A DNA stretch of 43,696 bases from a virus (lineage: Duplodnaviria > Heunggongvirae > Uroviricota > Caudoviricetes), in IMG/VR virus record IMGVR_UViG_2870490042_000005, one strand, 5' to 3'. A program made the position numbers and the translations under genes. Shown in pieces: positions 25,646 to 31,589 of the stretch (position 1 is its first letter; every line of letters begins with the position of its first letter). The notes below the pieces were generated by a model that saw only the letters and a program-made list of their open reading frames with translations, made no database searches and had not been told where the DNA came from.

Positions 25646-25879
25646 ATGTCAACGAAGAACAGAACCCGCAGAACAACAACCCGCAACATCCGCTTTCCTA
25701 ACCAAATGATTGAACAAATTAACATCGCTCTTGATCAAAAAGGGTCCGGGAATTTCTCAGCCTGGGTCATTGAAGCCTGCCGCCGGAGACTGTGCTCAGA
25801 AAAAAGAGTTTCTCCTGAAGCAAACAAAGAAAAGAGTGACATTACTGAATTGCTCAGAAAACAGATCAGACCAGATTGA
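25646..25879 (+). CDS. Small YlcI-like protein (DUF3950-type), moron
   Basis: 77 aa, MSTKNRTRRTTTRNIRFPNQMIEQINIALDQKGSGNFSAWVIEACRRRL, resembles DLP12 YlcI from memory. Confidence 0.6.
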   Translation: MSTKNRTRRTTTRNIRFPNQMIEQINIALDQKGSGNFSAWVIEACRRRLCSEKRVSPEANKEKSDITELLRKQIRPD

Positions 25880-25920
25880 AGCAATTTAGATAATCGTGCA
25901 GACTACGCCCCTCATATCAC

Positions 25921-26346
25921 ATGGAAGGTACTACAATGGCTCAGGTTGCCATTTTTAAACAAATATTCGATAAAGTGCGAAATAATTTAAACTATCACTG
26001 GTTTTATTCTGAACTAAAACGTCACAATGTCTCACATTACATTTACTATTTAGCCACAGAGAATATTCATCTTGTTCTTGAAAACGATAATACGGTTTTA
26101 ATAAAAGGACAGGGTAAGGTTGTAAATGTAAGATTTTCAAAAAATAAATGCCTTATAGAAGCCACATTAAAAGGATTCAAATCAGGAGAGTTATCATTTT
26201 ACGAATACAGGAAAAATCTTGCTACAGCAGGGGTTTTCAGATGGATTACAAATATCCACGAAAACAAAAGGTATTACTATACCTTTGATAATTCATTACT
26301 CTTTACTGAGAACATTCAGAACACTACACAAATATTTCCGCACTAA
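25921..26346 (+). CDS. YbcV-like protein (DUF1398), moron
   Basis: 141 aa with …[28 protein letters not shown]…[15 protein letters not shown]…, resembles DLP12 YbcV from memory; AT-rich. Confidence 0.65.
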
Positions 26347-26836: not shown

Positions 26837-27274
26837 TCATCGAAGGCATTGCGTCCTGATGTACTCCTGCAGGTAGTTAACCTGCGCGGTTATCCTGTCG
26901 ATTCCACTTCGGAGACGGTAATAATTGAGTTCAGCATCTGCTGTAAGTCTTGGGCTTTCTCCATCGCCCATGCTGCTGGCTCCGGTCTTTGACTTTGCAC
27001 ATGAGGCGGCGACTTGCAGCCGCTTACGCCCAGCAGAAACATCATCACGGAGACTTTCGATAGTCGCGTTAGCATCAGCAAGCTCCTTTGTATATCTGGC
27101 GTCGAGTTCTGCTACGTCACGTTGACGCTTCTGCATGTCAGCGATGATGGATGTGGCTTTGTCGCGCTGGGCTTTGTAGGCGATGGCGTTATCACGGTAA
27201 TGATTAACAGCCCATAACAGGCAGACGATGATGCAGATAACCAGAGCGGAGATAATCGCGGTTACTCTGCTCAT
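26837..27274 (-). CDS. Rz: Spanin inner-membrane subunit Rz
   Basis: 145 aa, lambda Rz-like ([19 protein letters not shown]…). Confidence 0.9.
26890..27081 (-). CDS. Rz1: Spanin outer-membrane lipoprotein Rz1, embedded in Rz in an alternate frame
   Basis: 63 aa with lipobox LLGVSGC and proline-rich tail; wholly inside Rz. Confidence 0.7.
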
Positions 27275-27750: not shown

Positions 27751-28077
27751 TTACTCCTTAGAGCCACCAAATTTGTTACCGATTACTCGCATTGCAGCCC
27801 CACGAATAGCATCGACACCGATCAGCCCCACCCCACCACCAATGGCAACAGATAGTGATTTAGGCCATCCGACATACTCAAGAGCGGATGCAAAAGTCAG
27901 CGTCAGAGCGCCACAGAGTAGAATTTCGAGTGTTTTTCGCTTCCAGCCGCCACCACCGCCAAAATAGGCAATACGTAAACCAGCCATAACAATCGACATA
28001 ATCACTGCGCCCAGCGGTGTGTCTCCACGCCACCAGCTCTGGACCAACTCCAGCCAGGTATTTGGGTTATGAGGCAT
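27751..28077 (-). CDS. S: Holin S (class I)
   Basis: 108 aa with transmembrane segments, C-terminus resembling lambda S. Confidence 0.8.
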   Translation of the reverse strand: MPHNPNTWLELVQSWWRGDTPLGAVIMSIVMAGLRIAYFGGGGGWKRKTLEILLCGALTLTFASALEYVGWPKSLSVAIGGGVGLIGVDAIRGAAMRVIGNKFGGSKE

Positions 28078-28217
28078 TTGTAGTTATCTCTCACCTCGCC
28101 AATACAGGAGGTGCAAATTGAGGGAACATCATGTACCGCAAATCAGAAGCGGAAACGTAAAAGAGGCCGAGCCAATGGATAACTGCGGTATAGACCAGGC
28201 TCAACAAATAGCCGGGG

Positions 28218-28250
28218 CCAGAAACGACAAACCCGCTCGACGGCGGGTTT
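28218..28250 (-). terminator. Terminator-like hairpin upstream of S (possible tR'-type)
   Basis: Stem aaacccgc/gcgggttt, T-rich tail on minus strand; assignment is inference. Confidence 0.35.
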
Positions 28251-28477
28251 AAGCTGTGTGGCGAAGTGACCACTCTTAACACGATACAATAGTTTTTGCG
28301 TACGCGTTAGCATTTTTGATGGAAGTTAATGGTTGTTAATCTTATACTCAGTAAACAAAATTTATGCCGCCTTGAGCATGATGCGACATGAGGCACATGT
28401 TTGGATCTTCCTCGAAGATTCGTGCGGTAGCTATGCTCAAAATCCAATCAGCTCATAAAACATACTATGGGTTTTAA

Positions 28478-29227
28478 ATGCTCATTCCAACATCTCTATC
28501 AAAACAACCAGTAATCGAAGCTGCTTTCGAAATGCGTTTTTCTAAAGAAACACAAATATCGGAAATAGTTCCAGGGTTTCTTTTTCACGCTCTAGGTTGT
28601 ACAAAACCAGTAATTAGTTTACCACCCAGTCAAATACCTAAAAATGTTCGTGAGGGAGATGAACAATTACATTACGCAGTTGTCAGTCGCCTCGAAATCG
28701 AAGGGTACTATATTGGACTAAGTGACCATGGTGTTGTTGTATCCACCAGCACCAAATATCAAGGGTGGAGTCATTTTAGAGAAAAAATCATTCATGTATT
28801 AAATGAGCTTAACAAATTAAATTTAAATGACAACATCATCCGCTACTCATTAAAGTATGTAGATTTTTTCCCAAAAGAAGACGATTCTAATTTATTTGAT
28901 AAGCTAAACGTCAGCTTAAATATGGCTGGCGAGTCTATGTCTAATTATCCGATCAATATCAGAATCGATAAAAATGAAGGCGCATTTCTAAATATAATTC
29001 AAATATTATCTCATGCTTTAGTCATGTCAGATAATGGAGAATTTAATAAAAAAGGACTAATCCTAGACATAGACAGCATTAGGCAAATCACTAATACTGA
29101 TGAAATAGATAAGTTTAAAAACGAACCAAAAAAAATTCTTGATGATCTTCACTCCTGTAATAAATTAGCTTTCTTTAGTTGCCTTAAAGAGTCAACAATT
29201 CAAGAACTAGAACCATCCTACAAATAG
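28478..29227 (+). CDS. Cassette ORF-A, hypothetical protein (249 aa)
   Basis: Long ORF in AT-rich DNA on strand opposite to late operon; no recognised catalytic motif; N-terminus KQPVIEAAFEMRF. Confidence 0.6.
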   Translation: MLIPTSLSKQPVIEAAFEMRFSKETQISEIVPGFLFHALGCTKPVISLPPSQIPKNVREGDEQLHYAVVSRLEIEGYYIGLSDHGVVVSTSTKYQGWSHFREKIIHVLNELNKLNLNDNIIRYSLKYVDFFPKEDDSNLFDKLNVSLNMAGESMSNYPINIRIDKNEGAFLNIIQILSHALVMSDNGEFNKKGLILDIDSIRQITNTDEIDKFKNEPKKILDDLHSCNKLAFFSCLKESTIQELEPSYK

Positions 29228-29242
29228 AAATGGTGGTATGAT

Positions 29243-29587
29243 ATGTATCCGTCTCATCATGTTTATCGAGCTCAACTTCAAGTATTAACTTTGGTTTTAT
29301 ATGGTCTGCATATAACTGCATTAACAGACATTGCCCAAAATCAACAGCATGGTCCTCAACAAAGTTTAATCGTCAAAAATCACGCTTTGGAGTATAAGTC
29401 TTCAACTACCGATTCAGTTCATTCCATCACACAAACATATAAAGCAGGGAGCACAATCTCAGTTGATCAAAGACTTGCAGTCTCGATGACAAACTTTTAT
29501 GAAAAATTATCGACAAACCAGGTGTCTTTAGGCAGTGAAATAAATAAAGTCGTTCATGCTTCACTGTGGGATTTATACTTGGATTAA
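29243..29587 (+). CDS. Cassette ORF-B, hypothetical protein (114 aa)
   Basis: ATG preceded by ggtggt RBS-like motif; same frame as ORF-A, separated by TAG plus 5 codons. Confidence 0.5.
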   Translation: MYPSHHVYRAQLQVLTLVLYGLHITALTDIAQNQQHGPQQSLIVKNHALEYKSSTTDSVHSITQTYKAGSTISVDQRLAVSMTNFYEKLSTNQVSLGSEINKVVHASLWDLYLD

Positions 29588-30205
29588 GTGATGAGTAATA
29601 ACATTTTTGATATCGAGAAATTCAAAGATCAAATTCCATATTATTTAACAGCTCATCAAAAAGAAGGGCTAATAAATGCACTTAGAGATTTCCCTGAAAA
29701 CACTAACTACTACCTTAGCAATTATCATGATGATCTGAAAAATGCTGCACTTCAGGGAGATATATTTAAGGAGCTTACAGTATATTCAATTAAAGGGACT
29801 AAAAAAACACGAGGCATTATATTAAGCAACAGTTGCGATATAGATACAAGTAATAATCGTGATGTGCCAATGCGTGCAGTCTTTGCTCCGTTAGTAAGTT
29901 TATCTAAGTTCGAAGCTATTCTTCTCTCCAACGGAGTTTCTAAGACTTCAATAGATAGCAAAATTGATGCTATAAGGAAGCAGTTAATTACTAATATTTT
30001 TTATCTTCCTGAATCAGACAACTTAGAAGAATGCATCGTTTTTCTTGATGATGTATACCAATTACCAACGGAAGAATTACAAAAACTCTTGAATGATAAA
30101 TGCAAAGCCATAACTTTAAGTCAAGTTGGTTTCTACATTTTACTATTCAAAATATCTATTCACTTTTGTAGATTCCATGAAAACATACAACGATTCGATC
30201 ATTAA
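29588..30205 (+). CDS. Cassette ORF-C, hypothetical protein (205 aa)
   Basis: GTG-ATG immediately after ORF-B TAA stop, same frame; terminator follows. Confidence 0.55.
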   Translation: MMSNNIFDIEKFKDQIPYYLTAHQKEGLINALRDFPENTNYYLSNYHDDLKNAALQGDIFKELTVYSIKGTKKTRGIILSNSCDIDTSNNRDVPMRAVFAPLVSLSKFEAILLSNGVSKTSIDSKIDAIRKQLITNIFYLPESDNLEECIVFLDDVYQLPTEELQKLLNDKCKAITLSQVGFYILLFKISIHFCRFHENIQRFDH

Positions 30206-30232
30206 GGCGGTACTACCGCCTTTTATTATTTT
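30204..30232 (+). terminator. Rho-independent terminator ending the plus-strand cassette
   Basis: Stem aaggcggta/taccgcctt followed by ttattatttt. Confidence 0.65.
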
Positions 30233-30590
30233 ACACAAGTATACTTACAACCCCCTCTATAAAACCGATTGCGGTTTGCAACTCCTTCCTAATAGTGCCA
30301 TCAGAGCACCTTCTCCTTTTGGCAATAGTGCGTAATGAGATACCAATAACAAAGTGGGCTATGATGAGCTCATATTCCTCTGGTTTATACTTTCTCAACC
30401 GAGCCACACAACTGTCTATCATAATGCCTTCGTCATCATCACACTGAATCCGTGACTTTTTGCCATGAGGTAAAAGCCCCTTGAAGCCTGCTGCTACCGG
30501 CTGCCAGTCCACACCACTGTTGTCTGCTGCAGCCCATGCTCCCCAGCGGTCCAATACTTCATACATATCACGCATCAACTTACCCCACAA
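30231..30590 (-). CDS. Q: Late gene antiterminator Q (Phage_antitermQ type, not lambda Q)
   Basis: …MRDMYEVLDRWGAWAAADNSGVDWQ…GFKGLL… matches the antitermination Q family from memory; true start may be ATG at 30575. Confidence 0.75.
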   Translation of the reverse strand: MWGKLMRDMYEVLDRWGAWAAADNSGVDWQPVAAGFKGLLPHGKKSRIQCDDDEGIMIDSCVARLRKYKPEEYELIIAHFVIGISLRTIAKRRRCSDGTIRKELQTAIGFIEGVVSILV

Positions 30591-30593
30591 AAA

Positions 30594-31589
30594 TCAGGCC
30601 AGCACGCCAATTGCCAGCGCACGATCGATAAAACGAAATATCAGCTCCAGCTGGGAACCATACTTCTCTTCAAATGCCACGGTATCCGCATGCAGCTCGT
30701 CGTGATGCTTTCTGCACAAAGGCAACACAAAAAGGTCATGCGCTTTTGTTCCCATTCCACCCTGACCGTGACCTATCAGGTGGTGGGGATCATCAGCGGG
30801 CTTTCCACAACATGCACACGGTTGTGTCTTAACCCAGCGCGTGTACTTTTCATTAACCCAGCGGCGACGTTTTGGGCGTAACATAAAAGACTCCGGCGAC
30901 TCCGGATCCACTTTCAGCGCCAGCACCTTTTTCGCTTTATCCTGGATGATGCTGGTGGCAGGAACAGAAGGAACAAGGTCACTTTCCCGGGTGACAGACG
31001 GCACAACAGGCTTCGGTAATCTCAGTGCCTTACGGGCTGCACTTTCCGGCAAGGCATCCGCCAGGTCATTACGAACCAGCCACCAGCACAGTTCCGGCAT
31101 TGTCACAACGTGACTGTCATCAAAACCGAGATCCCGACGCACGACAGACAACACCCAGCGGGCACAGTTATCCGTTGCCATTGATTCCAGCCGTTCCGTG
31201 AACTGGTCACGCAGCTGGTTATCACAGTGCCAGCACAGACGGATTGCGCCCGGAGCGTGCCGCATTGTGGTCATGTTCTCGCTGTGCCAGTCGGAATGAG
31301 GCCACTGACAGCCCTTTTCACGAAGTAACCAGCTTTCAAGACATTCCACGCCACCAGCACGACGGATCACTGCCTCATTGCGGAACACGGCCCGAACGGC
31401 AGGATCATCCGCCAGCGGTTGTGATGCCGCCGGAACGGCACCACTGGCGAAAGATGAATAACGTTCCGGCTCAGGCTCCAGCAGGACACGCCCCTGCATA
31501 AACAGGGGCATCAGCTCTGAACCTGGCCTGAACAATACGATCCCCATACGCGGGGCAATTTCAGGGGTCAGTAGTGCTCTCACGGTCAC
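30594..31589 (-). CDS. DUF968-type protein with C-terminal HNH-like motif
   Basis: 331 aa; C-terminus …HHLIGHGQGGMGTKAHDLFVLPLCRKHHDELH; start codon uncertain. Confidence 0.6.
   Translation of the reverse strand: MTVRALLTPEIAPRMGIVLFRPGSELMPLFMQGRVLLEPEPERYSSFASGAVPAASQPLADDPAVRAVFRNEAVIRRAGGVECLESWLLREKGCQWPHSDWHSENMTTMRHAPGAIRLCWHCDNQLRDQFTERLESMATDNCARWVLSVVRRDLGFDDSHVVTMPELCWWLVRNDLADALPESAARKALRLPKPVVPSVTRESDLVPSVPATSIIQDKAKKVLALKVDPESPESFMLRPKRRRWVNEKYTRWVKTQPCACCGKPADDPHHLIGHGQGGMGTKAHDLFVLPLCRKHHDELHADTVAFEEKYGSQLELIFRFIDRALAIGVLA

Follow-up and report, generated by a model that had tools for sequence, protein, structure and literature searches.

Where does late transcription begin in a lambdoid prophage whose Q gene is separated from its lysis genes by a cassette on the opposite strand? 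The question is raised by the IMG/VR record IMGVR_UViG_2870490042_000005, a stretch of 43,696 nucleotides (nt) which was analysed at its full length and is here called the window. The window is a lambdoid prophage with its late genes on the minus strand, and in the late direction the order is a DUF968/HNH gene, the antiterminator gene Q, a plus-strand cassette, an interval of 400 bp, the holin gene S, the endolysin gene, Rz, Nu1 and the terminase. An original prediction held that the cassette may separate Q from its late promoter, and that this promoter must lie either in the interval upstream of S (28078..28477) or at the 3' end of the cassette. We find that the segment 28310-28221 on the minus strand is the late control module of this prophage, at a probability of roughly 0.8, with a promoter (pR'), a candidate Q site, a pause-like region and an intrinsic terminator (tR'). 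The module lies on the far side of the cassette, and the proposed separation from Q is thereby borne out. We read the segment in this way because it is conserved, because it is placed before the late genes, because it holds a dyad that pairs with the type of Q, and because its homologue in Escherichia coli K-12 has a transcription start site (TSS).

A conserved block on the late-gene side of the cassette

The interval between S and the first cassette gene is free of genes, as had been said, and the listing of open reading frames (ORFs) gives only short overlapping ones of 41-63 aa. It very probably consists of two back-to-back halves, the upstream region of the cassette on the plus strand and the late control module on the minus strand. 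The parts of the late half, all on the minus strand, are as follows.

28293..28310, minus strand: candidate Q-binding element CTAACGCGTACGC with an A5 tract, proposed from the pairing of dyad and Q type
28309-28304, minus strand: -35 position TAACGC of pR', poor, overlapping the candidate Q-binding element
28281..28286, minus strand: predicted -10 hexamer of pR', TATCGT; TAnnnT+G is invariant directly 5' of TTAAGAGT in all seven types
28274, minus strand: predicted start of pR', the bracketed A in TTAAG[A]GT, 7 nt downstream of the -10 hexamer, placed by homology to about +/-1 nt
28262..28277, minus strand: initial transcribed region AAGAGTGGTCACTTCG, conserved with hardly any variation in all Q types, of presumed function
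28277-28272, minus strand: candidate sigma-dependent pause element AAGAGT
28265-28262, minus strand: candidate pause site TTCG, at about +12/+13
28221..28250, minus strand: intrinsic terminator tR', stem AAACCCGC/GCGGGTTT (28250-28243/28236-28229) with the 6-nt loop CGTCGA
28078..28220, minus strand: distal leader from tR' to the S start codon, common to SfII, SfIV and DLP12-type S modules in the alignment

The flanks of the window are 94% identical to Shigella phage SfII. In SfII, cdtI and the Stx2a phage 1447 the Q gene is 88-95% identical to that of the window at the DNA level, SfIV shares the leader and holin only, and each of these four phages has a different two-gene cassette on the opposite strand after Q or at that position. 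When their regions before S were aligned with that of the window, the only segment common to all was about 95 nt long, CTAACGC(G)GTACGCAAAAAnTATTGTATCGTGTTAAGAGTGGTTACTTCGCCACACAGCTTAAACCCGCCGTCGAGCGGGTTTTGTCG, and in the window the conserved block covers about 90 nt, 28310-28221. Every relative with this Q family has the block. It occurs in 80 phage records and in each of the 80 IMG/VR loci retrieved through the Q protein, and 175 further sites were collected with the 16-mer TTAAGAGTGGTNACTT. Parts of a 2.2-kb query with leader and cassette match in 2224 of 5426 complete E. coli genomes (41%). An Rfam scan of 27900-28600 at E<=1 gave no family, and in the searchable literature we found neither a description of this promoter type nor a paper on the late promoter of quuD/essD in DLP12.

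A comparison with phages carrying the same type of Q had been proposed as a check, and it shows the conserved block between the insert and the late genes. In phage 1720a-02 no cassette intervenes, and the block sets in at the Q stop codon itself (0-38 nt, with 38 nt from the Q stop to the TTAAGAGT anchor). The same distance in the window is 1950 nt, and the promoter unit is thus not adjacent to Q. Outside 1720a-02 an insert of 0.6-3.8 kb stands between the Q stop and the block, which is always on the late-gene side.

The other place that had been considered for the late promoter is beside Q, where the cassette has its 3' end (30100-30235). In that case late transcripts would cross the whole cassette antisense, and the hairpin at 28250 would be a downstream attenuator. 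Classical lambdoid maps do have pR' immediately after Q, and AT-rich DNA gives many weak promoter-like hexamers, but the promoter scan found no minus-strand site of that kind at 30100-30235. The sequence after the Q stop is moreover wholly different between cassette types, with nothing conserved between relatives that have different cassettes, so that no conserved Q site is possible there. Beyond the cassette, on the other hand, an element that matches the Q type is found in 157 of 157 loci, and the cassette-free 1720a-02 has the block at the Q stop itself. A promoter beside Q is for these reasons highly improbable, and of the two proposed places only the interval upstream of S is left. The expectation that late transcription runs antisense through the cassette has to be given up, since pR' comes after the cassette in the late direction and transcribes away from it, so that it and the promoter of the cassette are divergent.

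Candidate Q site, promoter and terminated leader

From the -10 hexamer onward the sequence of the block is common to all Q types. Upstream of it the sequence falls into seven types, each with a dyad: GCGTACGC, GCGGTCCGC (type B), GGAATTCC, TTTAC-AATC-GTAAA, TTTACGTACGTAAA (type E), ATTCG-TTA-CGAAT and TGTTATAACA. The centres of all seven coincide (+/-0.5), at 22.5-23 nt before TTAAGAGT, an A- or T-tract follows each dyad, and the seven pair one to one with seven types of the Q helix-turn-helix in 157 of 157 loci. An upstream element that varies with the type of Q, followed by a shared downstream part, is the pattern expected of a Q-specific loading site joined to a module that is specific for RNA polymerase. 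In the window the 8-bp dyad GCGTACGC occurs once, at 28305-28298, with its centre about 27.5 bp upstream of the predicted start, and judged from sequence it is probably the binding site of this phage's Q. Tandem 8-bp direct repeats, which form the Q site of phage 21, are not the rule here: all seven types are dyad-symmetric, and 8-bp direct repeats are seen additionally in type C only. The Q and dyad of type A flank at least 19 different cassettes.

The predicted start of pR' at 28274 is supported but not proven. Its homologue in K-12 has been recorded by Cappable-seq as a plus-strand TSS at U00096.2 576452 (PMC4782308, supplementary file 1). With an offset of 777 nt this position is NC_000913.3 577229, the homologous A in the block of DLP12, 7 nt after TATGCT. 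The same offset, applied as a control to the neighbouring TSS (576081), gives a position that is likewise 7 nt downstream of a TATTAT. The pR' start of DLP12 is not listed in the SMRT-Cappable-seq supplements. As to the -35 region, types D and E have TTTACA or TTTACG 16 nt upstream of the -10 hexamer, and type C has TTGCGG 17 nt upstream.

Two other placements of the promoter were rejected. The geometry of phage 21 would give TATTGT (28292-28287) as the -10 hexamer, a start at about 28279 and a pause element TAAGAGT at +2, with a spacing that matched phage 21 exactly, but Q types C, D, E and G lack TATTGT, whereas the TAnnnT that overlaps it is kept without exception and also agrees with the K-12 TSS. 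The scan for minus-strand promoters, which had been suggested for 28250..28480 as well as for the cassette end, did make one call in the former region, TTAACA-16-AAAAAT at 28339-28312. This is cassette-specific DNA and the site is not conserved.

The neighbouring K-12 start is itself a strong plus-strand TSS (U00096.2 576081, about 576858 in NC_000913.3, score 90). It lies a short way before the start of nmpC, and its transcription diverges from nmpC and heads for the pR' block of DLP12, about 370 nt away.

The first transcribed nucleotides, AAGAGT-GG-TCACTTCG / GG-TTACTTCG in the present group (AAGAGT-GGT(T/C)ACTTCGC), resemble those of lambda pR', AACGATGGGTTAATTCG, which reads AACGAT-GGGTTAATTCGC. 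The sigma-dependent pause element of lambda is AACGAT, at +1..+6, and the pause, at +16/17, takes place at TTCG. By analogy AAGAGT could act as a pause element with a pause near +12/+13, a suggestion to which we give somewhat less than even odds. A natural variant, AAGTGT, keeps A2 and T6, which are the two critical bases. A mini-hairpin at the 5' end of the leader (GUGGU/GCCAC) was considered and set aside: its fifth pair is broken in several variants, three invariant pairs are left, and covariation gives it no support. Just before the terminator there is a CTTAA motif (+22..+27; 28253-28249 in the window), which is kept even where the terminator hairpin is non-homologous and placed further downstream.

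The tR' hairpin had been placed at 28218..28250, and it was recovered by the terminator scan, by the repeat finder and in a 60-nt fold, which it dominates at -20.3 kcal/mol. Its tail, GTCGTTTC / GUCGUUUC, runs down to about 28221, and the predicted leader RNA would be about 50-54 nt long, ending at 28224-28221. Among the relatives the hairpin is kept or replaced by others: of the 73 distinct leaders 70 show a GC-rich hairpin with a T-run that ends 41-58 nt after the start, and several of the hairpin sequences are unrelated to each other. That non-homologous hairpins serve at the same place is good evidence that termination is a selected function. The remaining three leaders (L017, L163 and L187, from IMG/VR) keep the promoter and the first 28 nt or so of the transcript without hairpin and T-run. 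L017 loses its homology within the stem of the terminator, and all three may come from rearranged or decayed prophages.

Downstream of tR' no significant structure was found in the distal leader (28228-28060, fold z-score +0.05). The stretch UCACUUCGCCA at 28259-28269, which is +6..+16 of the leader RNA, is complementary at 10 of 11 positions to UGGCGAGGUGA at 28091-28101, just upstream of the S start, where it covers the likely Shine-Dalgarno sequence of S. About 0.8 such complementary pairs are expected by chance in the interval, so that the match is not significant alone.

A short terminated transcript also invites the thought that the block is an autonomous small RNA (sRNA) gene, similar to StxS, with a constitutive product of about 50 nt, that it does not respond to Q, and that the late genes are reached by early read-through. 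Short terminated pR' leaders can indeed serve as sRNAs, as StxS does (PMC7547250), the transcribed part of the block is more conserved than Q itself, and the K-12 TSS is present without induction. Against this stands that the upstream element changes with the type of Q and the transcribed part does not, as expected of a Q-loading site and not of a plain sRNA promoter. The place of the block is also constant, after Q and with the lysis or late genes next downstream, and it has no match in Rfam. We find a block that only makes an sRNA quite unlikely, but the role of sRNA and that of a Q-responsive leader are not mutually exclusive.

Several points weigh against the late control module as we have described it. 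The TSS signal in the DLP12 block is weak (relative read score 1.7, near the cut-off of that paper) and comes from a cryptic prophage. In the window's Q type TAACGC makes a poor -35, and pR' was not among the calls of the promoter scan. The candidate pause element overlaps the start (-3..+3) and is thus earlier than in lambda (+1..+6) or phage 21 (+2..+8), and the U-tract of the terminator is interrupted (UUUGUCGUUUC). The pairing of Q and dyad could partly reflect linkage, as the two lie on either side of one hotspot and none of the cassette clusters occurred with more than one Q type, and the 16-mer with which sites were collected itself imposes part of the sequence invariance across Q types. 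The dyad is finally unlike the tandem direct repeats of Q21, and together with the early pause element this means that the loading geometry is not simply that of Q21.

With a late control module at 28310-28221, the circuit would work as follows. The module would be a sigma-70 promoter with a weak -35, a putative Q dyad in the promoter spacer, a lambda-like pause region and a terminated leader of about 50 nt. Transcripts from pR' would in the absence of Q stop at about 28221, and polymerase on which Q has been loaded at the promoter-proximal pause would read into S-R-Rz and the structural genes. Q acts in trans, and the separation of 1.95 kb would therefore not break the circuit. In the ancestral state the module would have followed directly after the Q stop, and a self-contained AT-rich cassette with its own terminator would later have been swapped into the junction. 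The cassette would thus be convergent with Q and divergent from pR', whose transcription would never enter it. The T-run at the Q stop is on the plus strand only, so that early read-through from Q can enter the cassette antisense, and this might switch the cassette off at induction. Antisense shut-off has been proposed for the reverse-oriented Tai gene of phi80 (PMC11364771).

More speculatively, and with considerable doubt, we hypothesize that the short Q proteins (119-127 aa) may use a mode of loading that has not been described, with a symmetric dimer on a dyad at about -27.5 in the place of the -35 and an early pause that overlaps the start. At least seven orthogonal specificities would then share one module, and the junction would be an insulated docking bay for defence genes, on in the lysogen and silenced at induction by early antisense read-through from Q.

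The insertion hotspot between Q and pR'

The layout of the locus had been called unusual, which it is not. There are 115 distinct intervals from the Q stop to the dyad, and 111 of these hold an insert of about 600 nt or more, the other four being at most 14 nt long. The inserts form at least 35 clusters with a GC content of 0.30-0.42, and in 33 of these all genes run on the other strand from Q. K-12 DLP12 has the same layout. The two clusters with same-strand inserts code for a 409-aa protein annotated as a GIY-YIG nuclease (phiP27, L087 1239-2468) and for a 214-aa protein (C08, L195); these would be co-transcribed with Q and not convergent with it. The inserts include Kiwa KwaB (E=1e-143), the PADLOC candidates PDC-S20, PDC-S33, PDC-S60 and PDC-M53A, and an HNH protein similar to PDC-M68A, and, judged from K-12 and phage annotations, an NmpC/Lc-like porin. 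These are the marks of a hotspot for morons or defence genes: conserved flanks around many unrelated cassettes of deviant composition, with known defence systems among them.

The left junction of the inserts is inside the last 10 codons or so of Q, the right junction is the A-rich stretch or A-tract before the dyad, and the majority of cassettes have a terminal hairpin where Q stops. Some 8-10 codons at the end of Q (30231-30265 in the window, with equivalents in L001-L084) vary with the type of cassette, and the rest of Q is conserved. The mosaic junction therefore lies inside the coding sequence of Q, and a cassette brings its own C-terminal tail of Q together with the hairpin at the stop.

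The genes and elements around the module in the window are these.

30594-31589: DUF968/HNH gene, which precedes Q in the late direction
30231..30590, minus strand: Q antiterminator gene, 119 aa, PF06530 (E=1.4e-44, 112 of 118 profile positions covered); helix-turn-helix of type A (ISLRTIAKRRRCSDGTIRKELQ), a short member of the Q21 family
30204..30232, plus strand: intrinsic terminator of the cassette, hairpin 30204-30222 and T-run to 30232, on the plus strand only by the terminator scan
28478..30205, plus strand: three-gene AT-rich cassette (GC 0.34, insert cluster C03) coding for a TIGR04255-family protein of 249 aa and proteins of 114 and 205 aa
28323..28477, plus strand: cassette-specific upstream region, presumably promoter and 5' untranslated region, not alignable with relatives bearing other cassettes
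27751..28077, minus strand: holin gene S, the first late gene, PF05106
27271-27747: endolysin gene, after S
26837-27274: Rz, after the endolysin gene, PF03245; the lysis genes agree with the SfII annotation

To the Q21 structures 6P18/6JNX the Q protein has a distant match (E=1.4e-3). The first cassette gene (28478..29227, plus strand) matches TIGR04255, a family of unknown function, with E=2.6e-27. This is the only family match among the cassette proteins, which have no Pfam or PADLOC match. An identical cassette and leader are found in 91 of 5426 complete E. coli genomes. The cassette is a candidate for an uncharacterised defence or moron system, the hotspot elsewhere holding Kiwa and PADLOC candidates. 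The observation that its terminator abuts the Q stop was right: the cassette stop (30205) is separated from the Q stop codon (30231-30233) by 25 nt, all of them taken up by hairpin and T-run. For the cassette promoter the best candidate, read by eye and weakly indicated, has TATACT at 28343-28348 as -10 and a weak -35, TGGAAG, at 28320-28325. It is below the threshold of the scan.

The upstream region of the cassette also holds the 8-bp inverted repeat to which the original prediction drew attention as a possible part of the late leader. The repeat exists, with its arms at 28372-28379 and 28433-28440, 1-2 nt off the 28373..28438 first given, but it does not exceed chance: the 400 nt contain two perfect inverted repeats of 8-mers, the terminator included, where 1000 dinucleotide shuffles have 1.25 on average and 34% of them have two or more. 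The minimum-energy fold predicted for plus-strand RNA (z-score -1.29) does not pair its two arms. We have therefore dropped it as an RNA structure or operator, and by its position it belongs to the cassette's own upstream region and not to the late leader. One could still argue that the repeat and a third WTGAGCA, which stands at the start codon, together control the cassette or the late leader as a genuine operator or RNA element. The motif WTGAGCA is found three times within 114 nt (28372-28378 on the plus strand, 28440-28434 and 28485-28479 on the minus strand) as against 20 times in the 43.7 kb of the window, which gives a rough and post hoc p of about 0.02, and it equals the Q-binding half-sites of phage 21, ATTGAGCA/AATGAGCA. 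This may be a coincidence, the Q of the window is only remotely related to Q21, and the element that matches it is elsewhere. All 18 loci with this cassette are near-identical over the 45 nt compared beside the block, and conservation can thus not settle the role of an operator, which on the whole we think unlikely.

The window has a second set of genes on the opposite strand, at 25646-26346 (plus strand), with DUF3950 (77 aa) and DUF1398 (141 aa). It stands inside the late operon, flanked by Rz and the small terminase subunit, and in this moron position late transcription really would be antisense.

A predicted late promoter, a candidate Q site and a terminator have hereby been located for a prophage group that is present in about 41% of complete E. 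coli genomes and includes K-12 DLP12, the serotype-converting Shigella phages SfII and SfIV and several Stx1, Stx2, Stx2e and Cdt phages. Some Stx prophages have been said to "lack the reference pR' site" in a study of Shiga toxin-producing E. coli (PMC6266700). The seven natural and apparently orthogonal pairs of Q and operator on a common leader could be used to dissect the specificity of Q or as parts for antitermination, and the hotspot from the Q stop to the dyad is a precise place to mine for anti-phage or lysogenic-conversion cassettes. The layout of the 400-bp leader is itself ordinary; it is the pattern of the whole family, with seven dyad specificities and a defence hotspot between Q and pR', that is worth testing.

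Comparison with known late control regions

The closest point of reference is phage 21, for which the record OL657228 gives a -35 TTGACA, a Q-binding element ATTGAGCA + AATGAGCA, a -10 AACACT, the TSS, a sigma-dependent pause element TAAGCTG and a terminator at +3..+50, and whose Q has been studied structurally (bioRxiv 10.1101/651190). Both have a PF06530 Q and the same order of elements, with the Q site between -35 and -10 and a -10-like element at the transcript start, and in both a terminator within about 50 nt closes a very short leader before the late genes. The differences are that Q is 119 aa long in the window and 162 aa in phage 21 (E=1e-3 to Q21), that a dyad at about -27.5 with an A-tract stands where phage 21 has two tandem 8-bp direct repeats at -27..-12, and that the -35 is poor whereas that of phage 21 is TTGACA. 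The candidate pause element is at -3..+3 instead of +2..+8, and there is a cassette of 1.95 kb on the opposite strand, whereas the -35 of phage 21 starts 7 nt after the Q stop.

The lambda region pR'-qut-tR', which gives the 6S RNA, is alike in that a promoter downstream of Q feeds a terminated leader and in its similar initial transcribed sequence. Its Q belongs to an unrelated family (PF03589), its -35 is consensus-like, there is no insert between Q and pR', and its leader, at about 194 nt, is much longer than the 50 nt or so predicted here.

K-12 DLP12 (qsr') has the order quuD, nmpC (reverse and disrupted by IS5), block and essD holin, with a short Q of the PF06530 type, and provides the sole experimental TSS. 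It differs from the window in its Q specificity type, dyad and insert, QuuD having a helix-turn-helix of type E and the locus its own dyad, TTTACGTACGTAAA, and terminator, and in being a cryptic prophage.

As for the hotspot, the P2/P4 hotspots (PMC9122126) and the 'noncontiguous operon' of phi80 Tai (PMC11364771) likewise have conserved flanks around alternative AT-rich cassettes that oppose phage transcription, some of them for defence. The cassette of the window, unlike Tai, is upstream of the late promoter, from the last Q codons to the Q-binding element, and not inside the late operon, and any antisense shut-off would come from early read-through and not from pR'.

In the Stx phages of the 933W type a tR'-terminated pR' transcript similarly gives a short RNA in lysogens, StxS (PMC7547250), but their Q is of a 144-aa clade and the leader of 258 nt is processed to 74 nt. 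By leader length, by the clade of Q and by the lack of a match in Rfam the block appears unrelated to a leader of the StxS type. Compared with all of these, the window holds a late control module of the Q21 family without two of the details of phage 21, the tandem direct-repeat Q sites and the adjacency to Q.

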